This document shows, piece after piece, positions 570-18,057 of a stretch of 57,563 nucleotides of DNA. The notes under the pieces were generated by a model. It saw nothing but the letters and a program-made list of their open reading frames with translations. It did no database searches and had not been told where the DNA came from. Each line of letters begins with the position of its first letter. Position 1 is the stretch's first letter. The position numbers were made by a program, and so were the translations under genes. Source of the DNA: an uncultured Candidatus Saccharibacteria bacterium (GTDB taxonomy: Bacteria; Patescibacteriota; Andersenbacteria; UBA10190); the NCBI GenBank assembly GCA_964610055.1, contig CAZSUC010000001.1, positions 157,304-214,866 on the forward strand. The letters are read 5' to 3'.

Positions 570-850
570 GCCGCGGTAGCTCAGTGGTAGAGCATTCGCC
601 TAAGCAATTTGGGCCTTAAAGTAGTAATATTTTAAGCAAACTGGGTGAATTCGGGGGAAACTAAATTTAGCAATCCCGAGCCAAGCCGAGCCGAGTAAAT
701 AAATTAGTTCGGAAGGTGTAGAGACTAGCAAGTGAGCCTCAACAATAATCTTGCACAAGCGCCCAGCCCCTTGAAAAAGGGTGATGAGATAGTCCGGTAA
801 AAAACTGGAAGAGCGAAGTGTCGTCAGTCCGATTCTGACCCGCGGCACCA
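570..850 (+). tRNA. tRNA-Phe(GAA) interrupted by a group I intron; exon 1 570-601, exon 2 808-850, CCA encoded
   Basis: Cloverleaf elements: acceptor GCCGCGG/CCGCGGC, D arm GCTC-AGTGGTA-GAGC, anticodon stem TTCGC (596-600) / GCGAA (813-817), variable loop GTGTC, T arm GTCAG-TCCGATT-CTGAC, A73 plus CCA. Joining 601 to 808 gives a canonical 7-nt loop CTGAAGA, anticodon GAA. Confidence 0.8.
602..807 (+). ncRNA. Group I self-splicing intron (IC3-like, ORF-less, 206 nt) in the anticodon loop
   Basis: Core blocks closely match the Azoarcus/cyanobacterial tRNA introns as I remember them: GAATTCGGGGGAAACTAAA, CCGAGCCAAGCCGAG, GGAAGGTGTAGAGACTAGC, and P7 strands GACTA / TAGTC (GATAGTCC). The internal guide TTTGGGC (608-614) pairs contiguously with the ligated exons GCCT|GAA, including the U.G wobble at the 5' splice site. 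The last intron base is G807. Confidence 0.85.
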
Positions 851-896: not shown

Positions 897-1916
897 TTAA
901 TAATTACACTCACACGCTCCTGTTCCTCCAACATCTTGTAAGCATCCTGCATTGCACGATGGTGTTCCTCCGTTATTCAAACAAGTTGTTACAAAAGTAG
1001 TAAAGTTATCATCATCTACTGATGTTGCGCTGTCACTGACATCGTTTGCTGCGCACGAACAAATAGTCTGCAGCTCAGTTTCTTCTGTGTTTGTTCCGAT
1101 GATAAATGAATGCCAAGCACAACATGCATCTTCTATACTGCTATCCAGCGATCCCCCACAAAAATCCTGACACTGAGTAAATGCGTCTAAAACATAGTTT
1201 GTACCAACTCCGATTTCTACATTAATTTGTGATACCGATGTTTCAGACTCACACATGTTATTAGTTATCATGCGTGGTTGTGCTGACGTTGTTACCAGTG
1301 CTGCTGTTGGATTTTGATCAACATTCGCGTCAACCACTAAATTAATTCGCACTAATTGCACTTCTGACAATTGGTCATAAGTTAAATCGGATAATCCGTT
1401 ATTAATCTCAATCGGGTCAGCACCTCCCTGTTTGAAATACTCAAATAAAGCTTGTTTACTTTCTCTGTTTCTAACGTCCTTCAGAATTGACGCTGTCTCT
1501 TCGCTAGTTTCCTCACAGCCAGTACTACTAAGTTGTGCTACCTGTCGCATTAGCTGTCCGTCTGAGTTTAAATAGTACGATACTCGCTCTGGATCGTCGT
1601 CATCATCAACATTCGTTCGAAATGATATTGCATATTTATTCGCCCCCAAAACCCATCGTTCTGGCGGTGGCCCGTATGACTCCACCACTCCATTCTCGTT
1701 ACAATCAACATATCGCCCATTCTTTACTGTGTCTCCAATCCGCTGTAATTGAATTCTAGCGTCTTCTGTAATTTGAACCTGCTCAAATTGCTCTCGTTTT
1801 AGTTGGAATGATCTGCCAACGAACATCGTAATTGCAACTATTAAAATACCGCTTACGGCGATAACAACTAACATCTCTGCGACTGAAAATCCTTGCTGAA
1901 ATTTTGGTTTGTGCAT
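897..1916 (-). CDS. Prepilin-type N-terminal cleavage/methylation domain protein with a Cys-rich C-terminal domain
   Basis: The N-terminus MHKPKFQQG|FSVAEMLVVIAVSGILIV has the G/F-x-x-x-E class III signal followed by a hydrophobic helix. The C-terminal ~110 aa holds about 19 Cys (CCAWHS, CSCAAND, CNAGC, CECNY). Confidence 0.75.
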   Translation of the reverse strand: MHKPKFQQGFSVAEMLVVIAVSGILIVAITMFVGRSFQLKREQFEQVQITEDARIQLQRIGDTVKNGRYVDCNENGVVESYGPPPERWVLGANKYAISFRTNVDDDDDPERVSYYLNSDGQLMRQVAQLSSTGCEETSEETASILKDVRNRESKQALFEYFKQGGADPIEINNGLSDLTYDQLSEVQLVRINLVVDANVDQNPTAALVTTSAQPRMITNNMCESETSVSQINVEIGVGTNYVLDAFTQCQDFCGGSLDSSIEDACCAWHSFIIGTNTEETELQTICSCAANDVSDSATSVDDDNFTTFVTTCLNNGGTPSCNAGCLQDVGGTGACECNY

Positions 1917-3576: not shown

Positions 3577-3600
3577 CCCTAACCAGATTTGTACACAATG

Positions 3601-3673
3601 TGGGCGGTGAGGGATTCGAACCCCCGACCTACTGAATGTAAGTCAGTTGCTCTACCAACTGAGCTAACCGCCC
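3601..3673 (-). tRNA. tRNA-Val(TAC)
   Basis: The reverse complement reads GGGCGGT-TA-GCTC-AGTTGGTA-GAGC-A-ACTGA-CTTACAT-TCAGT-AGGTC-GGGGG-TTCGAAT-CCCTC-ACCGCCC-A. CCA is not encoded. Confidence 0.9.
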
Positions 3674-3674
3674 T

Positions 3675-3761
3675 TGGTGCGGACGAGAGGACTTGAACCT
3701 CCAAGGGCTTGCGCCCACAGCCACCTCAAGGCTGCGCGTATACCAATTCCGCCACGTCCGC
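3675..3761 (-). tRNA. tRNA-Leu(GAG), class II with a long variable arm, CCA encoded
   Basis: The reverse complement reads GCGGACG..CAGCC-TTGAGGT-GGCTG-TGGGCGCAAGCCCTT-GGAGG-TTCAAGT-CCTCT-CGTCCGC-ACCA. Confidence 0.9.
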
Positions 3762-4368: not shown

Positions 4369-5202
4369 CTAATCCTTCCGGTTTTGCTTCAAAAAATCAA
4401 TATCAGCCGCCAAACCATCATCATGTTTTGTTTCTAATATCCAATTCGCCTGACTAAAAATCGGATCTTTTAGCAATAACTTAAACCCGCTTGCGCCAAT
4501 TTGTCCTTGACCAATATGCGCGTGCCGATCTTTATGCGAATCTAAGTCACCCAACGAATCATTGGCATGGATTAATTTCAAATGCTCCTCACCAATCTGT
4601 TCTTTTAATATTGCCGTCGTCGCTTTAATTCCCGCTTCATCCCGCAAATCATATCCAGACGCGAATAAATGGCATGTATCCAAACAAACATGCATATCAT
4701 CTCGTCCAACCGCACGCACGATTTCTCCTAATTCTTCCAGTGAATCCCCCATCACCGCGCCTGCTCCTGCTGAAATCTCTAACAACAGTTCAGTCGTAAA
4801 TTCACCTTGGGTATAAATCTCCCGTACGCCGTTAATTACTTGCTCTAACGCCTCTGATCGCTCCGTCCATTCCCGCGCGCTTCCCAAATGAGTCATCACA
4901 TACTTCACCCCCAACAAACTTCCCCGTTCCAACTCTTCCCGCACAATTCTAATTGACGCCTTCGCAATCGCCGGTTTTTTGGACGCAAAATTAATGTAAT
5001 ATGGCGTATGGATATAACTTTCCAAACCATACTCAGCCGCTTTTGCCTTAAACTCATCCGCTATCTCTGGCGTAATCTTAGGCGCCGACCCGCCGCGCGG
5101 GCTGCGTGAAAAAAATTGAAAACATTCCAACCCCAACTCATGCGCTCGTTCTGGCACTAATTGCAGTCCTCCTGCGGCTGACACATGCGCACCTACTCTC
5201 AT
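4369..5202 (-). CDS. nfo: Deoxyribonuclease IV (AP endonuclease family 2)
   Basis: The N-terminus MRVGAHVSAAGG, HANDS...GS..DRHAHIGQGQIG, and the TIM-barrel length (277 aa) fit endonuclease IV. Confidence 0.9.
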   Translation of the reverse strand: MRVGAHVSAAGGLQLVPERAHELGLECFQFFSRSPRGGSAPKITPEIADEFKAKAAEYGLESYIHTPYYINFASKKPAIAKASIRIVREELERGSLLGVKYVMTHLGSAREWTERSEALEQVINGVREIYTQGEFTTELLLEISAGAGAVMGDSLEELGEIVRAVGRDDMHVCLDTCHLFASGYDLRDEAGIKATTAILKEQIGEEHLKLIHANDSLGDLDSHKDRHAHIGQGQIGASGFKLLLKDPIFSQANWILETKHDDGLAADIDFLKQNRKD

Positions 5203-5214
5203 ATTTTTATCTTA

Positions 5215-6744
5215 TCACCTCGCCTTTGCTTCCGCTCGGGTTTCTCTGATCACATTCACTTTAATATCCCCTGGATACTGCAATTCTTGTTCAATCTGCT
5301 TAGCGATTTCCTGCGCCAACTTAATTGCCTGCAAATCATCTATTTCACTGGGCGTGACAAACACACGGATTTCCCGTCCCGCGTGAATTGCGTACGCCTT
5401 TTCTACTCCGGTATGGCTGGTCGCGATATTCTCCAAGTCCTCCATCCGCTTCAAATACTGTTCAATGTTTTCTCGCCGCGCTCCTGGTCGTGCCGCCGAT
5501 ACCGCATCCGCGACCTGCACAATAATCGACTCCACCGTATCAAAAGGATAATCCCCGTGATGCGCTCGCGCCGCTTCAATTATTTGCTCGTCAATTCCAA
5601 ACTTGCGCATGATCTTCTCTCCAATCTCCACGTGGTTTCCCTCAACGTCATGATCAATCGCCTTGCCAATATCATGCAAAAGCGTTGCCCGCTTCGCCAC
5701 ATTTACATCTGCGCCTAATTCTTCCGCTAACATTGTCGCCACGTGCGCCGCTTCCCAGCTATGCTTCAGCATGTTTTGGCGATAACTTGTTCGGTACTTT
5801 AATCGTCCAATCAGCTGCACTAACTTTTCCGGCAAATCCATAATTCCTAAATCAAACACCACTGCTTCTCCGGCTTCCTTAATATCATCGTTGATTTTCT
5901 TTTTTGCTTCTTCCACCACCTCTTCAATCCGACCCGGATGAATACGGCCGTCTTTAAGCAACTGTTCCAACGCCCGCTTCGCCACCTGTCGTCGAATCGG
6001 ATTAAACCCAGAAATCGTAATTGTATTCGGCGTTTCATCAATAATAATCTCGCATCCCGTTAACCGTTCCAAATGCTGAATGTTTCGTCCTTCCTTCCCA
6101 ATCACCCGCCCAATCAAACTCTCATCCTCCACCGTCACATGGCTCGTGGTCGTCTCCGCCACCTGTGAGGAAGCATACCGTTGAATAATATTCGCTAAGA
6201 TCACATGCGCTTTTTCTTCTAGCTGCTTCACTCCTTCTAATTCCAATTTCTTAAGCCGCCGCACAATCTCATCCTTCGTCCGTGTTTCCGCTAACTCCAT
6301 CACTCTTTTTTCCGCCTGCTCACTCGTTAAGCCGGAAATCTCCGCCATCTTCGTTTCCTCTTCTGCCATCAGCCCCTTTAATTTTTCCTTTTCTGTCTCT
6401 AATACAGTTTTCTCTTGCGCTAATTCCTTTTCGCTCGTCTCAATCTTTTCTAATTTTGTCCCTAATTTTTCCTCTCGGTCTGCAATCCGTTTCTCCAATT
6501 CCAAAATTTGCTTGCGCCGGCTGTCCATCTCCTCTTCGCTTGACCGCCGTACTCGCGCCGCTTCTTCTTCCGCGTCCCGTTTTAATTTCGTCAGCTTGTC
6601 TTTCGCCGTCGCTAACTTCTCATTAATCTTTTTTTCCAGCGACTCGGCCTTTTTCGTAGCCGCTTGTTGCCGCCAAACATACCCTCCGGCCGCTCCGACT
6701 CCCGCCGCCAGCGCCAATCCTATAAATCCGCCCACAGTTACCAT
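5215..6744 (-). CDS. rny: Ribonuclease Y
   Basis: N-terminal TM helix, long charged coiled coil, KH domain (IGRVIGKEGRNIQHLERLTG), and HD domain (LLHDIGKA..HHGD). Confidence 0.95.
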   Translation of the reverse strand: MVTVGGFIGLALAAGVGAAGGYVWRQQAATKKAESLEKKINEKLATAKDKLTKLKRDAEEEAARVRRSSEEEMDSRRKQILELEKRIADREEKLGTKLEKIETSEKELAQEKTVLETEKEKLKGLMAEEETKMAEISGLTSEQAEKRVMELAETRTKDEIVRRLKKLELEGVKQLEEKAHVILANIIQRYASSQVAETTTSHVTVEDESLIGRVIGKEGRNIQHLERLTGCEIIIDETPNTITISGFNPIRRQVAKRALEQLLKDGRIHPGRIEEVVEEAKKKINDDIKEAGEAVVFDLGIMDLPEKLVQLIGRLKYRTSYRQNMLKHSWEAAHVATMLAEELGADVNVAKRATLLHDIGKAIDHDVEGNHVEIGEKIMRKFGIDEQIIEAARAHHGDYPFDTVESIIVQVADAVSAARPGARRENIEQYLKRMEDLENIATSHTGVEKAYAIHAGREIRVFVTPSEIDDLQAIKLAQEIAKQIEQELQYPGDIKVNVIRETRAEAKAR

Positions 6745-6977: not shown

Positions 6978-7562
6978 TCAGGCCTTTTCTACAATACTAT
7001 CCACAATCCCATAATCCCGCGCTTCCTGAGCGGACATGTAATAATCTCGGTCGCTGTCTTTCTCCAATCTTTCCAGCTTCTTTCCCGTATGCTTCGCCAG
7101 AATCCCATTTAAGCTCTGCTTTAATTTCAGAATATGCCGCGCGCTGATTTCAATGTCAGACGCCTGTCCTTCCGCGCCACCCATCACTTGATGAATCATC
7201 ACTTCCGCGTTCGGTAAGATTAAACGTTTCCCTTTAGCTCCCCCCGCTAGTAACACTGCTGCCATGCTCGCCGCCATCCCAATACAAATAGTCGAAATAT
7301 CCGGCCCTACAAACTGCATCGTATCGTAAATAGCCAAGCCAGCCGTCACTGATCCTCCCGGTGAATTTATATACACCTTTATATCTTTCTTCGGATCCTC
7401 ATGCTCTAAGAAAATCATTTGTGCGATGATTAAATTCGCCATGTCGTCGCTTACCGGCCCACCCAAAAAGATAATCCGTTCTTTTAATAGTCGGGAATAA
7501 ATATCATACGCCCGTTCTCCAAACTGAGATTTTTCTAAAACGGTTGGGATTAAATAAGACAT
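6978..7562 (-). CDS. clpP: ATP-dependent Clp protease proteolytic subunit
   Basis: [19 protein letters not shown], catalytic Ser context [11 protein letters not shown], and MIHQ; 194 aa. Confidence 0.95.
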
Positions 7563-7627
7563 AAAGACACATTAAAAAACAAACTACCCCTATCATACCT
7601 AATCTCCCGTCCCTGCTCTAGTTGTTT

Positions 7628-8491
7628 TTAATTGCAATCGCCTGCTTTTTCAAAGCCCGCTGCTGCCGCTTCGTCCTCTGAACAAAACCATTGTCCACCC
7701 TGGCTTGGTAAAACAATTGTCTTGGCGTACAACCGACACTCATCTGTTCGGTACACATTCTTGCCCATCACGCTCTTTGTGCCTTTTATTACGCACTTGG
7801 TAAGTTCGTTTGTAACTAATAAATCCGAGTCATTTTTTGTCACTTCGCACTGTTTCCAAAGTCCCTTACTGGTCGCGCTGGCATACCGCGCCGCTGACAA
7901 TAACCGATCTGCCAAAATCACGTCTTCTGACACTAATGGGAACCCAAAACCGCCTTCTAAGATTCTCTCGTTTATTAGAATTTCATCCTCCGCTTGAGGC
8001 GGTAAGAGATCCGGTGTGGGCGTAACTTCCGGCATCGTCATTTCTGGCTCCGTTGTCTCCGTCTCTTTTGCTTCTAGCTCTTCTTTCTTTTTATCATCCA
8101 CCATGTACACATATCGTACCCATGCACCGTCAGACGCTCGTTCCAAAGCCGGGTCAATCGCCATCCGCACTTCTTTTCCGATAATCGCTTCCTGCGCCGC
8201 TAAAACTTCGCGGCCGAAGCACTCTACCTTGCTTTGCACGCCCGGCACTCGCACACCTAAATATCGGATCACATGGCCATCCTCTAATTTAATCGTAATC
8301 CCATCAATTATTTCCGCCACCACGCCTCGCTCTGCCGGCGGCGTGTCATTCGGATTTGGAGTTGGACTCATTTCTTCCGTAAAAGATGTTTCTTGAGCCA
8401 AATCCTGCCTTAACCAAATCCCCAATCCAACCACCGCACACACTAATGCGCCTGTCGCCAATCCGCCCCAAAATCCAGCCTTTCCTATCAT
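7628..8491 (-). CDS. Membrane-anchored SNase-like (thermonuclease-fold) protein with non-canonical active-site positions and a C-terminal Cys-containing domain
   Basis: N-terminal TM helix. The SNase-like block is IDGITIKL..IRYLGVRVPG..GREV..GKEV..WVRYVYM...NERILEGGFG. An acidic insert follows. The C-terminal CVIKG...VYRTDEC..Y......WFCSEDEAAAAGF resembles the small domain annotated 'sunset' in Firmicutes nucleases (from memory). Confidence 0.6.
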   Translation of the reverse strand: MIGKAGFWGGLATGALVCAVVGLGIWLRQDLAQETSFTEEMSPTPNPNDTPPAERGVVAEIIDGITIKLEDGHVIRYLGVRVPGVQSKVECFGREVLAAQEAIIGKEVRMAIDPALERASDGAWVRYVYMVDDKKKEELEAKETETTEPEMTMPEVTPTPDLLPPQAEDEILINERILEGGFGFPLVSEDVILADRLLSAARYASATSKGLWKQCEVTKNDSDLLVTNELTKCVIKGTKSVMGKNVYRTDECRLYAKTIVLPSQGGQWFCSEDEAAAAGFEKAGDCN

Positions 8492-8517: not shown

Positions 8518-11500
8518 TTAGTCCGCCCAGAGGAATCCTTTCTCTGTCTCGTCCATGAAGAACTCACCGTGTCGCATGACTTGATCCGTCGTTGGTCGCG
8601 TCTCCAGCTTCATATATCCATCTGCGTTATAAGTACTCAGGACTGTTCCGTCCGTTTCCACCACTCGGAAACAATATGTCTTTGCTCCCGTCGCCCCGTT
8701 ATGCTCTAAGTGAAAGTCATACTCAATGTCATCTCCAGCGCTCGCCCCATTCGGATTATTCTGCGGCGACGCTTTCGAACTCACATAATTTTCCTTTACT
8801 GTCGTCGTACTAATCAAACTGCTCGTCAAAGCATCACCGTCCGTCAGCGACGCATCCGTTCCGTACCGCCAAATCTCGCTTGTTCCCGTATCATCCACAT
8901 CCGTCCATGTTAAGCCGCTATCCGTGCAGCTTCCGCCTGTCCCCGCTTCCGAATATTGCACTTTGAACGCCACCTGCTCCGGTAACAATGCACACGCTCC
9001 CGTCACTTCCAAATTCACCCGGGCGCGTAATTCATCGCCCTTCTGCGCCGTGTCATTTGATGCCGGCAACACACTCATCAATTCATTCTCATCCAAATTC
9101 GGATTTCCCCATGGATCCGTCGGCGTCTGCAAACTGTTATCCACGTACCAGCGCCAATCATTTTGCGTTAATTCAATTCCCGAAATCGTCCAATTCGTGT
9201 TGTTGTCATTCGGCGCAATCACTAATCCATCGCACGAAGTAATCGAACCATTGGCAATAGCCGTATCCCGCACTTCCGCATACTCCACATTTCCCGATCC
9301 CGTATTATCCAAATCCAACGTCCACTGCGTCCCATCCTCGGTTGAAGAAATATTCACCCGGTCATAAATTCCCGATCCATGCACATAAAATGTATTAGTT
9401 ACCGTTTGCGTCTTGCCCGCTTCAAACTCCATCTCCCGATCCGTGCTGTCTGCCACCGCGTCATTCTTCGTGAAGTTGTAGAAGGAAGACGTCCCATATA
9501 CGGTCTGATCCGTCCCATCAAACGTCACCGTGCTATTCTGCGGCACATACGTTCCTTCGTTATACCAATCACCCGCTACATTCATGTTATATGTCGAAAT
9601 ATCCAAACTTCCATCCGCAATCATCAAGTCATTGTTAATATCCAAGCTATTCCCCGCGGTATATGTTCCCGTCGCATCCGGCGTATGCTTCATCGCACCC
9701 ATGTATAAGTGTCGCATTTCTTCGGTGGATAATGCGCGATTGTAAATGCGGACTTCGTCTATTTTGCCGTTAAACCAACTGGCTGTATGGCTTGTACCAA
9801 AACGCTGTATTGTAATAGTGCCTGAATCGGATATAGCTCCGGTTGAAGACTCCGTATTATTTAAGTACACTCGCACGTTATTAGTATTGCGAGTGATGCA
9901 TAGGTACTGCCAAGCTGCTGCTGAGTTTGGCAAAGAATAAGTACGAATTACGTCTACACTTGTTCTTACAGTAAACGTGGTCGAGTTTGCTTCGAAGCGA
10001 TACACTTGTTCGCCACCTACGCCCGCGTTTCCTCCCCAGACTCCGTGAAGCGCGCTAGAGTTATCACGGTATATCCAAGCACATAAGCTTACATCACCTG
10101 TAAAAGTACTAGTAGAAGCGAGCGGTACATAATCATCCGTCCCATCAAAATCCAACGCATACGAATTTGTATAATTCGTCACGGGCAAACTAGAATTCGT
10201 CCACGTTGGCCCATTCGTTAACGTCCCCGTATTCCCATTCCCTGATGAATCCGCCGCACTCGTTCCTGTTCCTTCGTCCAACTTCCAATATCCCACTAAC
10301 CCATACTTCAGCGAATCGCCAAACGAAACATCATACAAACTCTCGTCAATTCCAAACGTATGATTATCTGTATCGTCCACCGTAACCTTGCTCGAATTTG
10401 GCGTAAACGTCCCCGCCGTCTCTAGCAAACCAGCGTAAATATTCCAGTTATGCGACGAATCCGTATCCAGCGTCCCCGCCGTCTGCGCCACAGTCTCATC
10501 CGCGTACAAATGATCCGCCAGCGTCCGGCTGCCATCCGCCACAGTCAAGTTATTAAACGGCTCGCCTCCCGTCTGAATCTCGTAACCAGTCGACGCTCCC
10601 GATAACGTCACCGTTCCGCTCTGCGCCGTAAACTCACCCCCGTCATTCTCCCAATCATTCGCCACATCCACCCCATAATTAGATGATGACACATCCAATG
10701 TTCCGGAAGACAAAATCAATGATCCGTTCACATCCAAACTATCCGCCAGCGTGTATGTTCCCGTTCCCGTCCGTGGCATTGACCCCGAAGCCAACCGCGC
10801 AATCTCTTCCGCTGACAGCGCGCGGTTATATATCCTCACATCGTCCAGTGTCATGTGCTGCGAAGATGATCCTCCTAATTTCCATATTCCATCAGGAACT
10901 AACGGGGTGCCGGATCCTGCTTGTTGATATCCGCCAGAATCAACGTTCACACTATTGACGTAAAAATTATGACTTGATGAAGAAGTAAAATTCCCATTAT
11001 AAGTCAATACAACATTTTGCCACGTATTAAGCGAGAAATCACTAGAACCGGTTCTGTCATAGAGCAATGTTGAACTGCTGAACCATCGAAAAACGAGTTC
11101 CCCTGAAGACTCATCATACACACCAACTTTTATGGCAGTACTCCCACTACTAGTATTTGCTAGCAAAATACTGTCATATCTTGTTTGATCACTAGGGTAA
11201 TACCAAAAACTCAAAGAAAATGCTTGATGTGAATCAAAAACAGGAGATGCAAATTCCACATAATCATTCGTCCCGTCAAAATCCAACGCATATGGACTAT
11301 CAAAATCTAATCCACTCGGTACCGTCGTCGTCCACTCATCCCCATCGCTATTCGTTAATGTCCCCGTATTCCCATACCCTGACGAGTCATTGATTGTTGT
11401 TCCTGTCCCTTCATCAAACTTCCAGTATCCTACCAACCCATCATTGATATACAAATCATTAAAGCTCTCACCATCGCTCGTAATCGTCTCCGCCCCTGTT

Positions 11501-14500
11501 CCATTCATCACCACTCGCCCCGTCGTCGTCACGCTTCCACCCGTCGCGTCCCACGATCCAGCCACATACGCCGTATTCGCTTCCAAATTCAAAGTTCCAT
11601 TAATATCAACATCCGCCACATCAATCGTCCCCCCCGGCGTCATACTGTAATTCTCGGGTATAAACAATTCATTATTTTTATCTCCTCCCGCCAACGTCGC
11701 AATCTCATCTGCCGATAATGCGCGATTATATACTTGTACATCATCAATCTGACCATTGAATGGCCTAACTGATGCACTGCCATTTTCAGAGCCAACTCCC
11801 CAAGCAGTTGTTCCTTTGTCAAAACTCACATCTCCAGCATCAGATTCTCTTAAAGCTCCATCAACATATAATTGTCTCTGTGTTGCGCTACTATCGTCAT
11901 ATATAGCCGTGACATGATACCAGGTATCTTTCACGATTGAACGATACCCATCGCCAGTTTTTGGATTATCAGATGATACTGCAAATTGAAACGCGTCCCC
12001 ATTCGTATCGTCATTATCAAACCATAACAACACACTCGTTCCATCCGCTGCTGTACCTCTATGCCCTATGACTGATCCGTCTGTTGTATCAACATCTATT
12101 TTAACCCAAGCAGACAATGTAAATGATCCATTCGTTGGAATATTTTGATTTCCAATTGATACATAATCATTACTTCCATCAAAATCCAACGCATACGGGT
12201 TCGTAAAGTTAATCTCATCCGGTACCGTCGTCGTCCATGTCGTTCCGTTCGTTAACGTCCCTGTATTTCCGCTTCCCGAAGAGTCCGCTGTTGAAGTTCC
12301 TGTTCCCTCATCAAACTTCCAATAACCTATTAATCCATCATTGAAATCACCGTACATTTGTAACGTTCCGCTCTCGACTGTATACATTCCCGTCACGTCA
12401 CTATCATTTGATCCGGCACTCGTATCCGCCGTATCCAGCTGCGTATTCGTAATCGACCCGTAATTATCGTGTCGCGCAATCAGTCGATTTTCATACACAT
12501 TCAAATCCGTAATGTTTACTCCGTCCGTTACTGACACCGTGACTCCGTTCTCCGGCTCATCATCCAAATAGATCGTCAAAATATCATTGCTGTACACCGT
12601 TAGATCCGCAATCGCAAACGCGCCGCTTTCATCTGTCTCGTCCGTCGTTCCGTGTTTCGTTCCGTTCACCGCCACCGCTACCGTTTTATTCGCCCCAATA
12701 TTTGTTGTCCCCTCATCCGTATACACTACTCCCGATACCGCACATAACTGCCAGATCGTCCAAGCCGTGTTTCCGCCGGAATCGTACACTTCGCAAGCCA
12801 CTATATTCGCTCCCGACACGTTGTTTGAGTCTTTCACGTCTGCTTTTGAGATACTATGATACGAAGCGATTGGCGTCCCATCAATGTCTATAATCCAAGC
12901 GGTATCCGTCACTGATGAGCGCAAATTCACGCGGTCGCTGTCATCAATCCCCGTAATCGTGAATACTCCGCCGGAAGCTATGGTCTGTGTTTTCTCCGCT
13001 TCAAACGTTAACGTTTCATCCGTATCGTCATTCACATCATCCGTCTTCGTGAAGTTATACCATGTTGTATTTCCGTTCACTGCCTGGTCTCCGCCATCAA
13101 ATGTTACGGTTGAATCCGCGTAAGTAAACGTCCCCGTATTACTCCAATCCCCACCCAAGTTAATCATCGTTAGATCACCCTCCCCATCATCCGTCGCATC
13201 CAACGTCCCAATCACCGTTATATCATTCGTAATATCCAAATCATACCCATTGGTATTTAACACATCTCCCGTATTAACTGTTACTGACGTTGCTACCATA
13301 TCTGACGCCAAATCCGTCGTATCCGGCGAAGTTCCTATCGCCACATCTCCCATATCTTGCTTCGTTGTCCCCTCATCCGTAAACGTTAAGTCTCCGTCAA
13401 ACGTTAGTTGTGATCCATTGGTTGATTTGGTGAAGGTGGCGCCGTTGCTTATCGTAAAGTCACCCGCCGCATTTAAGGTGTAATCACTTTGCGCGAATGT
13501 GCCTGACTGTAATTGGAACTCTTCATTCACGTCCGCCGCCGCGCCTAATTGGAATGTATCTAAACCCGCGCTGTCACTAATCACCACATTCTTATACTCC
13601 GTCGAGAAATCAGTAATCGTATGTGTGCTTCCGGTTCCATCCCCGTAAAACTGCACCGTTGATCCGCTCTGCAAATCCAGCGTGCTTCGCGTCACACTCT
13701 CGCTTCCTTGCATCTTTAACGTGTCAGTAACAGTTAAGACATTGGTAGATAGTGCATTCCCCGCCAAATCCAACGTCCCCGCCGTCAACGTCACATCTTG
13801 CGATGTCGCATTCCAATCCGCACTTGAAGCCAACGTCACCGTCCCTCCCGTCTTATTAATTGTTATATCTCCATTCGGTTCATTTCCACCTGCATCCGTA
13901 TATGTTTGGTCGTTTGTCCCTGTGAACTGGAGAAGAGCTGTCCCTCCATCAAACCCAGAGTCCACGGTAACATCTCCTTGAGCCTGGATAGTACCGGTGT
14001 TCACATAACCATTTGTCAAGGTTAATGTATTGGCAATCACAATCGAATCACCACTTAAATTCACCCACCGGGTATTATCCATTGTATTTACCGTCAGGTT
14101 ATAAAACGTCTCCGTCGTTGCCACATTTACATATTGTCTATTACCAGTGAACGCTACTGTTCCGTTATTATGATTAAATGTTCCAGTTCCTGAAGTATGT
14201 GTAAAACCATCATTTGATCCTGAACCTTGATCTGTTCCTATAAAAGTAAGAGTACCAGTAGTTGATGTAACCGTTCCATTCTGCAAATTCAAACCTTCAA
14301 TACTAACATTTGCACTATCAGCAAAACTAATTGTTGTAGTGGAATTATCTAAATAAACCATTGGCAATATAGCACCATCAGGCACTTCAAAACTTTGATC
14401 GCCAGACCCATCAATCTTTAGTACACCCGTTGAACCTCCTCCTGATGTTGAAGCAATTGAAATTGCTCCTTTCGCATTAATTGTGCCGTTATATATAGTT

Positions 14501-17500
14501 CCTTGTGTAAATGTAAATAAATTATTTACAACCAGTGAATCACCACTTAAATTCACCCACCGGGTATTATCCATTGTATTTACCGTCAGGTTATAAAACG
14601 TCTCCGTCGTTGCCACATTTACATATTGTCTATTACCAGTGAACGCTACTGTTCCGTTATTATGATTAAATGTTCCAGTTCCTGAAGTATGTGTGAAATC
14701 GTCCTTGCCATCATCTTGGCCAATAATTGTTAATATTCCAGAAGTCGATGTAAACGTTCCTAATGTTAATGCAAAAGTTGTGCTAATCGTTATCGCCCCA
14801 CTCCCCCCCGTAAAGGTTCCGTCTGCCTGATCCCATCCTGAAGTTCCTATCGTAATTGTGTAACTGGTATCTTGCGTAATCGTTCCTGTATATCCGCTGT
14901 TTATATCAATTCCTGCCACGTTTATATTCGCGTTAATCGTCACATCTTTCGTGCTAGTACTGTCAAATGTCGCAATGTCACTGCTTGTTGGCGCTGTATC
15001 GTTCGTCCAGTTAGCTGCTTCTGACCAGTTATTTGTGCTACCGCCGCCATCCCATGTCACCACCGCATCCGAAGCCAGTTGCCACGCTCGCGGTTCTGTC
15101 CAATCGCCCACCGTTAACTCACCTAAGAGGTAAAACTCTGGACTCTTATCCGGTGCGTTAAATGTATATGACAACGTTGTGCTTTCTCCGGCCTTAATCG
15201 CTACGTTAGTCCATGTAATTTGATTTTCTTGTACGCTGATTATTGGCTCTTCATTCCCGATTGTTTCAACTGTTTCAACAGTTTTCTCCACTTCCTCTAC
15301 TTCTTCTGTGTCTTCTGTATCAGCTTCTTCTTCCTCTTCCTCTATCACTTCTTCTTCAATCTGCGTTTCCGGTGTTGGTTCAATTGACGGACTTGGACTT
15401 ATAGACGAATCTATTTCCTCCACTCCTTCTGTGTCTTCTGTATCAGTCGCTTCTTCCACTTCCTCTACTTCTTCTGTTGCTTCTTCCTGAGCCGCTTCTA
15501 CTGCCGCTGTCATTTCCTCTTCTGCTTCTTCATCCGGCCCCCCGACCGCATTCATTAAATCGTTTAATCCGCCATTAATCACAAAATCAGCCGGAATTTG
15601 CTCTGTTACTGTGCCGTTAAAATCTTCTGCGGCTGTTACTTTTATTGCTACTGTATAATCTTCAACCGGATAAATTCGAGTTGCCGCCGTTCGCTCCACC
15701 ACAAACGGCGCACTTTCTGTTACTTCAAAAGATTGTGCCATTGTGCGTGCGCCATTCTCGTTCACCGCTGTGACTACTACCATGTACTGGCCGTTTTCCG
15801 CTGTCGTGTATGCTGCTTTATAATCCGGTTCATCTGTGACGGAAACGCGCGAACAGCTTTCTGATCGCGTTATTCCCGCTTCTTCCGTCTCTTCAGTTTG
15901 TTCTTCTTCTTGCTCTTCTCCCTCCGCCTCTTCTACTTCACCTTCTTCGCTTTCTTCTTTTATTTCCGCTGTTTCTAACACTGTTTTTGCCCCGGAAGGA
16001 CTGGTAATTTCTAACGTCACATCCGCATCACATACCGTGTGCCCCCAGTCATCCAAAACACCAATGCCAATTTCCGCTGTTTCGCCTGATTTATACGTTG
16101 ATTTGTCCAAATTCATCGCTAAAACACCCCACGTAAAGTCTTGCTCAAATGTAACCGCTTCATTTTCGTTAATTGCATCGGTTAATTGCACGCGCAACGT
16201 ATATTTACCTGGCCGAAAATCTTGCTCCGGCTTTGGCACTTCAATAACCGTCTCTCCGTCTTCGTTATTCAGTAAAATTGGCCGAATATTTGTTTCTTCG
16301 CCCTCTGGATCTAACACCACCGCTCCCATAATCGTCTCTGCTGCTGTTTCTTCGTACGCCGCTTGTGCCTCCGACCCCACTATGCTACTAACCAGATCTA
16401 GTCCCCATTCTAACCAGCCATCCGGGTTTTCTGTGTCTTCAGTTTCTTCCACTTCTACCTTAAATTCCTGAGTTTCTCCCGCTTTTTCCGGATCTTGCGG
16501 CGTTAACTTTACTTTCTTCGCCTCTTTATCTGTTTCCAGATGGAATTGAACTGGTTCATTTGCATTAAACTGCACTAATTCTTCCGCTACCAATCGAATA
16601 TCGCTTTCTTCCGCTTTTGCCGCTTCGTCCGTTTCTTCGGCTTCATCATTACTGTCTGTATCCTGATTAACTGTGCTTAAAGGCGGCAATAATCGGCCGA
16701 TTGATACTTCCGGCAAAGTAATACCATTCTCTGCTAACGTCTCATTTGCCTTATTTAACGCACTTTCCGCTGATTCTGCGGGATCCAAATCTAATTCCAA
16801 AGTTACTGGTTCTGGTTCCGGCAATGCAACTGCCGCTGTCATTTCTGCAAAATCATTCCAACCGCTTGTTCCGCCTGATTCATAGCAATAGTCATCACAA
16901 GTCACCTTTTTCGGACTCACATTCAGGATATCTTCAAACAATACGTATTGCAGGTCAGTCGCTCCGCGCGGATCCAACATTGCCGGTTCGCCTGAACTGC
17001 TGGCTGCAACTGTTAACAAATTCTCCGTTCCTACCCCAGCCACCACTGGTGCTCCTCCTTTTAGTGACAATGTTCCCTTCACTGTCAGCGTGCTGCCGGA
17101 TTGAATGGTGAGCGTCTGTCCGACCTGAGCAATTTTACTTAGGTTATTAAATGTCGCCGTGCCTGATACCAACTGTCCGATCCCGTTCAAACTTACTGTT
17201 CCATTGTTGTGTTCAAACTCTCCCGCGATCAATGCCAAATTTCTCTTCACGCTTAAGGTTCCACTAGTCGCGATAAACTTTCCTCCCAGCAGAGTGAATG
17301 ACCCCAGCACTTCCATTGGTGATGGGCCTGATTCAAATGTGCCACCGTCTTGGCGAAAACCTTCCAGTCCAATTGTAATACGCTTCCCCGATCTAACTTC
17401 TATTTTGCTTGGGTATTCACTGCGAATATCTAAACCAGCAACGCTTACGTCCGTATCAATTACGACATCGTGATCGCTTGTTTCGTCAAAAGTCGCAATA

Positions 17501-18057
17501 TCATCAGCTGTTGGCACTATATCATCACTCCAGTTAGCAGCCGTGCTCCAGTTATTATCCGCTCCGCCGCCATCCCAGGTCTTAACTGACGCTTTTGATG
17601 ATAACGCGCCCCATAATTTAATTGGATCAATGCTTGGTAAAATCGGGCTAAATACCATCACAAATACCAGAACGGAGCTAACTGCTGCTCTGAACTGGTA
17701 GCCATGATCTGCTTTTATCACCCATATAATCGTTTGGACAGCTTCATTTAAAGCTGGAAACTCGCGTTTTGCATCTTTCCAAACCGCTCTAAAATAGCGG
17801 TTTACCTGGGTTTCTTTCTTTTTCTTTGCTTTTTTGTAATGTAGACCCGGTACGTTAGCTGCCTGAATGTGATGTAATACCTCCGCAATCCCTTTATTAA
17901 CCTGTTTTCGGTTAAATAATGCGCTTAATCGTCCGATTAAAATGTCCTGTGTTTCGGCTACCTTCTCATCCCACGCATACCAAAACTTGCTGCATATCCG
18001 CACTATTTGGCGGATATACGTCAAAAAAGACTTAAATGAAGGAAGTCTTAAAAACAT
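8518..18057 (-). CDS. Giant (3179 aa) membrane-anchored surface protein with beta-helix-like repeats and three LamG/concanavalin-like modules
   Basis: Uninterrupted 9.5-kb ORF with a hydrophobic anchor at aa ~123-141. Two TWDGGG..NW....D(I)ATFD heads are each followed by G/T/N-rich repeats. Three modules read GL[IV]GYWK[FL]DEGTGT..DSSG.GNTGTL...YALDFDG..DYV....D[DE]V[QR][IV]YNRALS..E. There are also E-rich spacers. Confidence 0.9.
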   Translation of the reverse strand: MFLRLPSFKSFLTYIRQIVRICSKFWYAWDEKVAETQDILIGRLSALFNRKQVNKGIAEVLHHIQAANVPGLHYKKAKKKKETQVNRYFRAVWKDAKREFPALNEAVQTIIWVIKADHGYQFRAAVSSVLVFVMVFSPILPSIDPIKLWGALSSKASVKTWDGGGADNNWSTAANWSDDIVPTADDIATFDETSDHDVVIDTDVSVAGLDIRSEYPSKIEVRSGKRITIGLEGFRQDGGTFESGPSPMEVLGSFTLLGGKFIATSGTLSVKRNLALIAGEFEHNNGTVSLNGIGQLVSGTATFNNLSKIAQVGQTLTIQSGSTLTVKGTLSLKGGAPVVAGVGTENLLTVAASSSGEPAMLDPRGATDLQYVLFEDILNVSPKKVTCDDYCYESGGTSGWNDFAEMTAAVALPEPEPVTLELDLDPAESAESALNKANETLAENGITLPEVSIGRLLPPLSTVNQDTDSNDEAEETDEAAKAEESDIRLVAEELVQFNANEPVQFHLETDKEAKKVKLTPQDPEKAGETQEFKVEVEETEDTENPDGWLEWGLDLVSSIVGSEAQAAYEETAAETIMGAVVLDPEGEETNIRPILLNNEDGETVIEVPKPEQDFRPGKYTLRVQLTDAINENEAVTFEQDFTWGVLAMNLDKSTYKSGETAEIGIGVLDDWGHTVCDADVTLEITSPSGAKTVLETAEIKEESEEGEVEEAEGEEQEEEQTEETEEAGITRSESCSRVSVTDEPDYKAAYTTAENGQYMVVVTAVNENGARTMAQSFEVTESAPFVVERTAATRIYPVEDYTVAIKVTAAEDFNGTVTEQIPADFVINGGLNDLMNAVGGPDEEAEEEMTAAVEAAQEEATEEVEEVEEATDTEDTEGVEEIDSSISPSPSIEPTPETQIEEEVIEEEEEEADTEDTEEVEEVEKTVETVETIGNEEPIISVQENQITWTNVAIKAGESTTLSYTFNAPDKSPEFYLLGELTVGDWTEPRAWQLASDAVVTWDGGGSTNNWSEAANWTNDTAPTSSDIATFDSTSTKDVTINANINVAGIDINSGYTGTITQDTSYTITIGTSGWDQADGTFTGGSGAITISTTFALTLGTFTSTSGILTIIGQDDGKDDFTHTSGTGTFNHNNGTVAFTGNRQYVNVATTETFYNLTVNTMDNTRWVNLSGDSLVVNNLFTFTQGTIYNGTINAKGAISIASTSGGGSTGVLKIDGSGDQSFEVPDGAILPMVYLDNSTTTISFADSANVSIEGLNLQNGTVTSTTGTLTFIGTDQGSGSNDGFTHTSGTGTFNHNNGTVAFTGNRQYVNVATTETFYNLTVNTMDNTRWVNLSGDSIVIANTLTLTNGYVNTGTIQAQGDVTVDSGFDGGTALLQFTGTNDQTYTDAGGNEPNGDITINKTGGTVTLASSADWNATSQDVTLTAGTLDLAGNALSTNVLTVTDTLKMQGSESVTRSTLDLQSGSTVQFYGDGTGSTHTITDFSTEYKNVVISDSAGLDTFQLGAAADVNEEFQLQSGTFAQSDYTLNAAGDFTISNGATFTKSTNGSQLTFDGDLTFTDEGTTKQDMGDVAIGTSPDTTDLASDMVATSVTVNTGDVLNTNGYDLDITNDITVIGTLDATDDGEGDLTMINLGGDWSNTGTFTYADSTVTFDGGDQAVNGNTTWYNFTKTDDVNDDTDETLTFEAEKTQTIASGGVFTITGIDDSDRVNLRSSVTDTAWIIDIDGTPIASYHSISKADVKDSNNVSGANIVACEVYDSGGNTAWTIWQLCAVSGVVYTDEGTTNIGANKTVAVAVNGTKHGTTDETDESGAFAIADLTVYSNDILTIYLDDEPENGVTVSVTDGVNITDLNVYENRLIARHDNYGSITNTQLDTADTSAGSNDSDVTGMYTVESGTLQMYGDFNDGLIGYWKFDEGTGTSTADSSGSGNTGTLTNGTTWTTTVPDEINFTNPYALDFDGSNDYVSIGNQNIPTNGSFTLSAWVKIDVDTTDGSVIGHRGTAADGTSVLLWFDNDDTNGDAFQFAVSSDNPKTGDGYRSIVKDTWYHVTAIYDDSSATQRQLYVDGALRESDAGDVSFDKGTTAWGVGSENGSASVRPFNGQIDDVQVYNRALSADEIATLAGGDKNNELFIPENYSMTPGGTIDVADVDINGTLNLEANTAYVAGSWDATGGSVTTTGRVVMNGTGAETITSDGESFNDLYINDGLVGYWKFDEGTGTTINDSSGYGNTGTLTNSDGDEWTTTVPSGLDFDSPYALDFDGTNDYVEFASPVFDSHQAFSLSFWYYPSDQTRYDSILLANTSSGSTAIKVGVYDESSGELVFRWFSSSTLLYDRTGSSDFSLNTWQNVVLTYNGNFTSSSSHNFYVNSVNVDSGGYQQAGSGTPLVPDGIWKLGGSSSQHMTLDDVRIYNRALSAEEIARLASGSMPRTGTGTYTLADSLDVNGSLILSSGTLDVSSSNYGVDVANDWENDGGEFTAQSGTVTLSGASTGYEIQTGGEPFNNLTVADGSRTLADHLYADETVAQTAGTLDTDSSHNWNIYAGLLETAGTFTPNSSKVTVDDTDNHTFGIDESLYDVSFGDSLKYGLVGYWKLDEGTGTSAADSSGNGNTGTLTNGPTWTNSSLPVTNYTNSYALDFDGTDDYVPLASTSTFTGDVSLCAWIYRDNSSALHGVWGGNAGVGGEQVYRFEANSTTFTVRTSVDVIRTYSLPNSAAAWQYLCITRNTNNVRVYLNNTESSTGAISDSGTITIQRFGTSHTASWFNGKIDEVRIYNRALSTEEMRHLYMGAMKHTPDATGTYTAGNSLDINNDLMIADGSLDISTYNMNVAGDWYNEGTYVPQNSTVTFDGTDQTVYGTSSFYNFTKNDAVADSTDREMEFEAGKTQTVTNTFYVHGSGIYDRVNISSTEDGTQWTLDLDNTGSGNVEYAEVRDTAIANGSITSCDGLVIAPNDNNTNWTISGIELTQNDWRWYVDNSLQTPTDPWGNPNLDENELMSVLPASNDTAQKGDELRARVNLEVTGACALLPEQVAFKVQYSEAGTGGSCTDSGLTWTDVDDTGTSEIWRYGTDASLTDGDALTSSLISTTTVKENYVSSKASPQNNPNGASAGDDIEYDFHLEHNGATGAKTYCFRVVETDGTVLSTYNADGYMKLETRPTTDQVMRHGEFFMDETEKGFLWAD
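14045..14202 (-). repeat. Copy 1 of a 158-nt perfectly identical intragenic repeat
   Basis: Base-for-base identical to 14537-14694, with a 492-nt (164-aa) offset. Encodes ..HTSGTGTFNHNNGTVAFTGNRQYVNVATTETFYNLTVNTMDNTRWVNLSGDS. Confidence 0.9.
14537..14694 (-). repeat. Copy 2 of the 158-nt perfect intragenic repeat
   Basis: Identical to 14045-14202. The flanking sequence is diverged at the DNA level although the protein repeat unit extends further. Confidence 0.9.

Follow-up and report, generated by a model that had tools for sequence, protein, structure and literature searches.

A probably intact group I intron in the tRNA-Phe(GAA) gene of an Andersenbacteria-like bacterium, and the Patescibacteria intron family to which it belongs

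Does the segment at 602-807 of a 57,563-nucleotide stretch of contig CAZSUC010000001.1 (positions 157,304 to 214,866; hereafter the window) represent a working group I intron that splits a tRNA-Phe(GAA) gene and, if so, is it an oddity? An initial annotation of this DNA had proposed such an intron, inserted immediately after U33 of a tRNA located at 570-850, and had regarded both the host and the site as unusual. Very likely, in our view, the segment is a real group I intron of the self-splicing type that appears to be intact. The Andersenbacteria-like bacterium that carries it probably has no other tRNA-Phe gene. Positions below refer to the window and to its plus strand unless stated otherwise.

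The Rfam group I intron model (RF00028) matched 592-808 from model position 1 to 253 with 66.3 bits (E = 1e-14), above its gathering score of 50 bits; that is, the covariance model recovered a full-length group I intron as proposed. ARAGORN run without introns called no tRNA at the locus, and the Rfam tRNA model also missed the interrupted gene. When introns were allowed, ARAGORN reported tRNA-Phe(gaa) i(33,206). Upon deletion of 602-807, ARAGORN called a 75-nt tRNA-Phe(GAA) with an encoded CCA, and the minimum-free-energy fold of the spliced sequence (-30 kcal/mol, z = -2.64) was a perfect cloverleaf. The calls with and without the deletion agree with the initial annotation that a cloverleaf appears only after removal of these 206 nt. 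The tRNA body is nearly a base-for-base match to the intron-less tRNA-Phe(GAA) genes of relatives, and the spliced anticodon loop reads CUGAAGA. U20, G44, U45, U59, U60 and A73 were all found in the letters as annotated. These six positions make up what we take to be the bacterial tRNA-Phe identity set.

The 5' exon (570-601, tRNA positions 1-33) contains the acceptor strand (570-576), the D arm (579-593), the 5' strand of the anticodon stem (595-599), C32 (600) and U33 (601); its limits were given by ARAGORN calls on spliced and unspliced sequence, by the cloverleaf fold and by stem covariation in the intron family described below. The 3' exon (808-850), delimited by ARAGORN, family covariation and the fold, contains G34-A35-A36 (808-810), the 3' strand of the anticodon stem (813-817), the variable loop (818-822), the T arm (823-839), the acceptor strand (840-846), A73 (847) and the encoded CCA (848-850). 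The intron between them (602-807), defined by the RF00028 match and by helix covariation, is 206 nt long, holds no open reading frame (ORF) and ends in omega-G807. An 83-amino-acid ORF on the minus strand (600-851) overlaps it and was dismissed as a mechanical reading frame.

We then considered where the intron is cut. A different junction would produce a mature tRNA with another anticodon or identity, and ARAGORN does accept other deletions, e.g., as Leu(aag) or Ser(gga) with shifted ends. However, these alternatives break group I rules, give loops of other than 7 nt or weaken the anticodon stem. With the group I rules that we applied (a 5' exon ending in U and an intron ending in G), 602-807 was the only deletion that yielded both a 7-nt loop and tRNA-Phe(GAA). 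As the initial annotation had noted, the guide TTTGGGC (608-614) pairs with GCCT|GAA, so that P1 and P10 together fix both junctions. P1 (598-614) is formed by G598-C599-C600-U601 and A602-A603 with guide positions 609-614 around a loop at 604-608, and carries a U601.G611 wobble; the UUU of the guide (608-610) pairs with G808-A809-A810 as P10.

Both pairings were followed through a 55-sequence MAFFT alignment of homologous introns. P1 was paired in 100% of the sequences, the U.G wobble was present in 55/55, and three exon pairs covaried with the guide (GC/CG, AU/CG and CG/UA), corresponding to tRNA positions 30-32. Among 105 introns the exon/guide classes were GACU/GGUC (53), CCCU/GGGG (34), GCCU/GGGC (11) and GAUU/GAUC (4), with the wobble constant throughout. 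For P10, 99.4% of cells paired (U-A, U-A and C-G/U.G), with the GAA side fixed by the selection template and the guide side UU(C/U) free to vary. Because the guide tracks the anticodon stem, the U.G wobble is constant and P10 pairs, the junction is, on these pairings, 601|808 and the anticodon GAA. The near identity of the tRNA body to the intron-less tRNA-Phe(GAA) of relatives speaks against another identity as well, and we judge a different junction to be almost certainly wrong.

The same alignment was used to examine the ribozyme core. Overall, 97.8% of cells paired, compared with 34-48% when the 3' partners were slid by 1-3 columns; 38 pairs showed compensatory change, and 0/500 shuffles reached the observed value on any measure. 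The Rfam E-value together with the covariation in 55 homologues excludes chance. The family had been collected with a core pattern and a template requiring anticodon-stem complementarity and G|GAARA, of which the guide-side covariation of P1 and the helices P2, P3, P4, P6a and P8 are independent. The conserved core blocks that had been listed were located in the window, namely GAAGGTGTAGAGACTAG at 712-728, CCGAGCCAAGC at 676-686 and the P7 strands GACTA (723-727) and TAGTC (790-794), and the window retains every column that is invariant across the alignment.

Helix by helix, P2 (616-623 / 628-635) is closed by a GNRA tetraloop, GUAA (624-627); 94% of its cells paired, all seven inner pairs showed compensatory changes, and its loop is conserved as G-N-A-A. 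P3 (641-647 / 760-766) and P4 (651-656 / 674-679) were each 100% paired, with three covarying pairs in P3 (UA/CG, UA/CG and GC/AU) and two in P4. Within P4, a short P5 (661-663 / 668-670) was recognized by eye in the window only, and it was left out of the covariation test as the MAFFT register was shifted there for the window. P6 (680-682 / 715-717) is an invariant GCC/GGU and uninformative, and it leads into P6a (686-691 / 707-712; loop 692-706), in which all 6 pairs covaried and 99.7% of cells paired. The J6/7 segment and the 5' strand of P7 occupy 718-727; G721 and 723-727 pair with 790-795, leaving A722 bulged, to form the guanosine-binding helix. P7 was paired in 55/55 sequences, but it is invariant and its 5' strand was part of the search pattern; it is consistent with the model only. 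P8 (767-771 / 779-783) has a GAAA-type loop, with all five pairs covarying and 88% of cells paired. The window therefore holds a P3-P8 core with a P3/P7 pseudoknot and a bulged P7 nucleotide, in which P3, P4, P6a and P8 covary. After the 3' strand of P7 (790-795), a 3' tail (796-807) that forms no real P9 ends in omega-G807, and P9 is likewise absent from many family members. In many of these P9-less members (e.g., L176, L189 and L199) the last 8-10 intron nucleotides, around alignment columns 345-368, hold a short copy of the 5' strand of the anticodon stem, which could pair with the stem strand of the 3' exon, for example CAGC...|GAAGAGGCUG; the window does not have this copy.

Between P7 and P3' the window carries an extra hairpin (728-754; stem 728-732 / 750-754) with a conserved 17-nt loop (733-749) containing C738-U739-C740. 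The Rfam consensus lacks this hairpin and treats it as a 30-nt insertion. Its stem pairs 3 and 4 covary in the family (GC 26 : AU 25 and GC 29 : AU 22), and the loop is strongly conserved. The triplet CUC (738-740), which precedes a conserved AAC, is the exact complement of GAG (693-695) in the P6a loop, and we propose, on this complementarity and its conservation, a 3-bp loop-loop kissing contact that would clamp the extra hairpin onto P6a. At the middle pair of the contact, 48 aligned sequences have G-C, 6 have A-U and 0 are mismatched. In an alignment-free test, the exact complement was found at the 5' end of the P6a loop in 100/102 introns, with five compensatory variants. The most common combination, CCC in the extra loop with GGG in P6a, was matched near the 5' end of the P6a loop in 87/88 introns, the other one having its match further into the loop. 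The rarer CUC/GAG, which the window carries intact on both sides, was matched in 8/8, UCC/GGA in 2/2, CCU/AGG in 1/1, GUC/GAC in 1/1 and GCC/GGC in 1/2. The CUC/GAG variant was present in at least three different anticodon-stem lineages.

With these elements, splicing of the window intron can be modelled on the standard group I pathway. The precursor would be transcribed from about 550 to a terminator hairpin at about 880. P1 would arise when the guide (608-614) pairs with G30-C31-C32-U33, which places the U33.G611 wobble at the splice site, and an external guanosine, held in P7, would attack the 601|602 bond. Omega-G807 would then occupy the guanosine site while UUU (608-610) holds G34-A35-A36 as P10, and the 3'-OH of U33 would attack the 807|808 bond to give the 75-nt tRNA with the loop CUGAAGA. 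The fold would be stabilized by the GNRA loop of P2 and by the family-specific contact between the P6a loop and the extra-hairpin loop.

Several points weigh against this reading of an intact, spliced intron. Splicing activity, expression and the status as sole tRNA-Phe gene are inferred. Owing to the selection template, the uniform omega-G and GAA of the family and its fully (100%) paired anticodon stem are partly by construction, and P6 and P7 are invariant and so have no covariation support. At 206 nt the intron is among the shortest of the family (200-454 nt), lacks a real P9 and has a minimal P5, and in the family register of P8, C768 stands opposite U782 as a mismatch. In the tRNA, the T-loop at 828-834 reads TCCGATT as annotated, with C829 at position 55 in place of the near-universal U55, so that 828-830 is U54-C55-C56 instead of the conserved U54-U55-C56; the other tRNAs of the window have U55. 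Finally, a second, uninterrupted tRNA-Phe gene may exist beyond the visible 57.5 kb.

Some of these features, namely C55, the missing P9, the minimal P5 and the P8 mismatch, could be assembled into a rival explanation, in which the locus is a decaying copy whose intron does not splice or whose tRNA does not work, the cell being served by another tRNA-Phe outside the window. ARAGORN and Rfam found no other tRNA-Phe in the 57.5-kb window, the rest of the genome lying outside our view, and such a gene elsewhere would fit the rival. However, TCCGATT or TCCGATC was found in 7/105 family members with differing T and anticodon stems and from several lineages, and one more member has G55. C55 is thus, as far as the family comparison goes, a recurrent and apparently tolerated minority variant rather than a sign of decay. 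P9-less introns are also common in the family. Moreover, a decaying copy would not be expected to keep all the family-invariant core positions, a perfect P1 and P10, both sides of the rarer GAG/CUC pair and four perfect tRNA stems, and the gene is flanked by a promoter-like site and a terminator-like hairpin at the syntenic tRNA-Phe position of relatives. Small genomes of the candidate phyla radiation (CPR) usually have one gene per tRNA, an inference that also favors a working copy here. We therefore regard decay as improbable and retain the reading of an apparently intact intron.

The flanking signals are as follows. A promoter-like site, TTGAAA-16-TATGTT with an upstream TG (522-549), lies 20 nt before the tRNA start and was identified by consensus scan only; similar TTGCAA-17-TAnTAT motifs were seen by eye upstream of tRNA-Phe at the loci L311, L313 and L314. 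Downstream, a terminator-like hairpin (855-885), also recognized by eye, has the stem CCCCG/CGGGG (860-864 with 871-875), the loop TTGTAA, and an A-run and a T-run at its sides. It went uncalled in the terminator scan, most likely because an A/T extension of the stem uses up the T-run, and Rfam models of terminator-containing small RNAs matched it weakly. The hairpin separates the convergent tRNA-Phe gene and an ORF at 897-1916 (minus strand) and could be a two-way terminator.

Which organism carries the locus, and is the intron a fixed part of the gene? The RNase Y encoded at 5215-6744 (minus strand) is 67-73% identical to proteins from metagenome-assembled genomes (MAGs) of Candidatus Andersenbacteria and other Patescibacteria, the next-best group reaching only about 40%. 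In relatives, RNase Y is followed by tRNA-Leu(GAG), tRNA-Val(UAC), tRNA-Phe(GAA) and tRNA-Gly(GCC). The window has the same four tRNA genes, with the Leu and Val genes at 3600-3761 and a partial Gly gene at 1-53. This last is the 5' part of tRNA-Gly(GCC) on the minus strand, cut by the window edge; it was assigned from a truncated Rfam tRNA match of 35.3 bits, the anticodon loop UUGCCAU and the Phe-Gly synteny in relatives. On protein identity and gene order, the window is from an Andersenbacteria-like member of the Patescibacteria (CPR). We also considered a phage or plasmid element and dropped it, as RNase Y, a sensor kinase, the tRNA cluster and the synteny with CPR MAGs point to a chromosome.

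The initial annotation had suggested a survey of related genomes for intron-less alleles, and such alleles do exist. The syntenic tRNA-Phe gene was uninterrupted in six relatives and interrupted in one, L241, by a 236-nt intron at the same site that Rfam confirmed with 62.3 bits. The presence and absence of an intron at one syntenic gene among close relatives is the pattern expected of an element that is gained and lost. Comparative evidence makes the window intron a member of a large family resident in Patescibacteria tRNA-Phe genes, probably gained and lost over time.

Several other features of the neighborhood were recorded. The ORF at 897-1916 carries an N-terminal prepilin-type methylation motif (Pfam N_methyl, 22.6 bits) and stands between tRNA-Phe and the Leu/Val tRNA pair, a place where the tRNAs of relatives are tightly packed. 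Two giant ORFs are present on the minus strand at 8518-18057 (3179 amino acids) and 24074-33433 (3119 amino acids). GC skew is negative in all 4-kb bins of the window (1-57563; -0.04 to -0.33), and the long ORFs are mostly on the minus strand.

The claim that host and site are unusual survived only in part. The classical tRNA-intron literature covers cyanobacteria and alpha- and beta-proteobacteria (PMC11408192), and against that literature tRNA-Phe(GAA) at 33/34 does stand out; in genome data it does not, as at least 105 other species-representative genomes, nearly all Patescibacteria, share both the host and the site with the same intron. This figure comprises 101/117 loci from a scan with a subfamily pattern and four from a core scan, all of which passed a strict tRNA-Phe(GAA) 33/34 template. 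The subfamily pattern includes the start of the extra hairpin, and the matches listed were almost all Patescibacteria MAGs. Intron lengths in the family range from 200 to 454 nt with a median of 241 nt. Lui et al. (2021) reported that group I introns often interrupt CPR tRNAs, which makes these hard to detect, and that CPR tRNA sets are full only once such tRNAs are recognized (PMC8172020). In addition, a 2025 preprint by Nakagawa et al., cited in PMC12641178, concerns, to judge by its title, a novel tRNA insertion site in Patescibacteria. Because public genomes hold the family in abundance and this preprint exists, we take the window intron as a further member of a known family and not a one-off.

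Host assignment required care. We used rule-based enumeration of splice sites followed by a strict sequence template in place of ARAGORN labels. Five loci labelled Phe(gaa) by ARAGORN (L018, L075, L083, L098 and L106) are really class II tRNA-Leu(UAA) with the intron at the usual U|AA site, and automated host surveys that allow introns are liable to the same error. Likewise, the Pro and Ser host labels produced by splice-site enumeration were spurious tie-breaks at loci that also allow Phe(gaa), and both sets of labels were rejected. The exact 17-nt core of the window retrieved, among the matches listed, tRNA introns in Proteobacteria, Acidobacteria, Cyanobacteria and others, hosted mostly by tRNA-Leu(UAA) and also by Arg(CCU/UCU) and Met/Ile(CAU), with a few further tRNAs as candidate hosts. 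ORF-less introns at 33/34 were seen in tRNA-Met(CAU) of L031 (Paceibacterota), L087 (Planctomycetia) and L088 (Accumulibacter), indicating that the 33/34 site is not confined to tRNA-Phe or to CPR. The intron subfamily with the extra-hairpin signature also occurs in candidate non-Phe tRNAs (L216, L234 and L173 among the loci); in one of these hosts, apparently tRNA-Asn(GUU), the junction would fall within the anticodon.

What, then, might move such an intron? In the spacer between tRNA-Phe and tRNA-Gly, at 101-499 on the minus strand, lies a free-standing gene for a 132-amino-acid HNH endonuclease, 70 bp upstream of tRNA-Phe and divergent from it. The product matched PHROG family phrog_2255 (E = 2.7e-26) and Pfam HNH (22.5 bits, cut-off 21.4). 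In intron-less relatives the same spacer is 1-80 nt long and empty. Full-length homologues (60-69% identity) were found in eleven other Patescibacteria genomes, and all eleven lie 39-75 nt upstream of tRNA-Phe, again divergent, in wider neighborhoods that differ. With the window included, 9/12 of the HNH-flanked tRNA-Phe genes have the intron and 3/12 (L311, L313 and L314) do not, a small sample that is not phylogenetically independent. In these three, the D and anticodon stems of tRNA-Phe diverge to an unusual degree.

More distant homologues (29-45% identity) were found antisense inside group I introns of about 620 nt at L077 (about 524-1220), L014 (about 4760-5440, minus strand) and L162 (about 7145-7840), where the HNH gene is placed between the 5' splice site and the ribozyme core and the intron splits tRNA-Met(CAU) at 33/34. 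These host genes were missed by ARAGORN and by the Rfam tRNA model, and local splicing around the three ribozymes found only the neighboring tRNA-Gly; a search for the acceptor-stem complement beyond the HNH gene recovered the tRNA-Met(CAU) 5' exon in each case. At L162, the HNH-bearing tRNA-Met intron is directly beside an intron-containing tRNA-Phe gene.

We weighed two readings of the HNH gene in the window. In one, the enzyme would be the DNA-level mobility partner of the intron, a free-standing homing endonuclease acting at or near tRNA-Phe. It would cut intron-less tRNA-Phe at or near 33/34, and repair would bring in the intron together with the endonuclease gene; the tRNA-Met(CAU) introns with antisense HNH genes would then be the fused, fully mobile stage. 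In the other, the gene is unrelated to the intron, an independent selfish endonuclease that homes into the tRNA-Phe spacer or is tolerated there, much like the free-standing endonucleases that phages have beside tRNA genes. T4 SegB offers a precedent, being free-standing and acting on the region of a tRNA gene (PMC13565253). Independence also fits the three close homologues that adjoin intron-less tRNA-Phe genes and the roughly 90% of intron-bearing tRNA-Phe loci that have no HNH gene in the fetched flanks, both of which count against a partnership. However, all 12 close homologues adjoin tRNA-Phe divergently in differing neighborhoods, nine of them with the intron, and the divergent D and anticodon stems of the three intron-less genes fit immunity of the target site. 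Furthermore, the presence of distant homologues inside tRNA-Met(CAU) introns at 33/34 suggests that this endonuclease lineage is tied to these introns. On balance, we give about even weight to an HNH gene unrelated to the intron, and we put forward the mobility partnership as a tentative reading with somewhat less than even support.

These findings leave the basic picture of group I introns unchanged; the window intron is an ordinary instance of its kind, in a family with features that merit experiment. For annotation, a search that does not model group I introns will list tRNA-Phe as missing from this genome and from more than 100 other genomes of Patescibacteria. To RNA biologists the family presents more than 100 naturally occurring versions of a very small ribozyme, with a clean series of P1/anticodon-stem covariation and a tertiary contact, supported by covariation, that lends itself to testing. 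For the study of mobile introns, reduced genomes with HNH genes of both kinds, free-standing and intron-encoded, at the same tRNA site make up a compact system in which to follow how such introns come together and persist. The loop-loop contact and the two endonuclease arrangements may or may not be new.

We finally compared the window with known systems. Bacterial tRNA group I introns were reportedly described by Reinhold-Hurek and Shub in 1992. In the classical Azoarcus and Anabaena structures the 5' strand of P7 joins P3' almost directly, and they are not known to carry an insertion in J7/3. The window departs from this arrangement, as 728-759 holds a 27-nt hairpin and linker that are conserved and covarying in the family. 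By its architecture the window intron is best called IC3-like rather than IC3, because its J7/3 holds a hairpin insertion. The small IC3 introns known to date include those of Azoarcus pre-tRNA-Ile(CAU), Agrobacterium tRNA-Arg(CCU), and cyanobacterial or plastid tRNA-Leu(UAA) and tRNA-fMet (PMC11408192, PMC3984707). The window intron resembles them in its size class (about 200-250 nt), its lack of an ORF, its position in the anticodon loop, the pairing of the 5' exon U with a guide G, the GNRA loop of P2 and the 17-nt J6/7-P7 block GAAGGUGUAGAGACUAG. In contrast, it resides in tRNA-Phe(GAA) at 33/34, whereas the classical introns reside at 34/35 (Leu) or after position 36 (CAU and CCU), and it differs in the extra hairpin between P7 and P3' that is proposed to contact the P6a loop and in the reduction of P9 to a short tail. 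The 2025 Patescibacteria preprint, to judge by its title, describes a similar setting in the same phylum, a group I intron in a tRNA gene at a non-classical site.

Collaborative homing has been described for phages as a route to mobile introns (PMC3984707). The present case is alike in that an HNH-family gene adjoins an intron-containing gene in the window and in eight other intron-bearing genomes, and in that related endonucleases occur inside related introns of tRNA-Met(CAU), matching the progression of that model. It is unlike in that the genome is cellular (CPR), the interrupted gene encodes a tRNA and the endonuclease is of the HNH family, whereas the phage case concerns a protein-coding gene, and in that some HNH homologues flank intron-less genes. 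The bolder combined proposal, that the HNH gene and the ORF-less intron are a collaborative-homing pair in a cellular genome and that the loop-loop contact is an undescribed clamp defining a new subclass, seems doubtful to us; if true, nature would have preserved two stages on the proposed path from a free-standing endonuclease to a mobile intron. A second comparison is offered by I-Ssp6803I, a homing endonuclease of the PD-(D/E)XK family. It is encoded in the group I intron of Synechocystis tRNA-fMet, according to the entry for Bonocora and Shub (2001) in the reference list of PMC3984707. Both systems associate a homing endonuclease, a putative one in the window, with a group I intron in a tRNA anticodon loop; I-Ssp6803I is encoded within its intron, whereas the HNH genes described here stand free beside tRNA-Phe or lie antisense within the tRNA-Met(CAU) introns.

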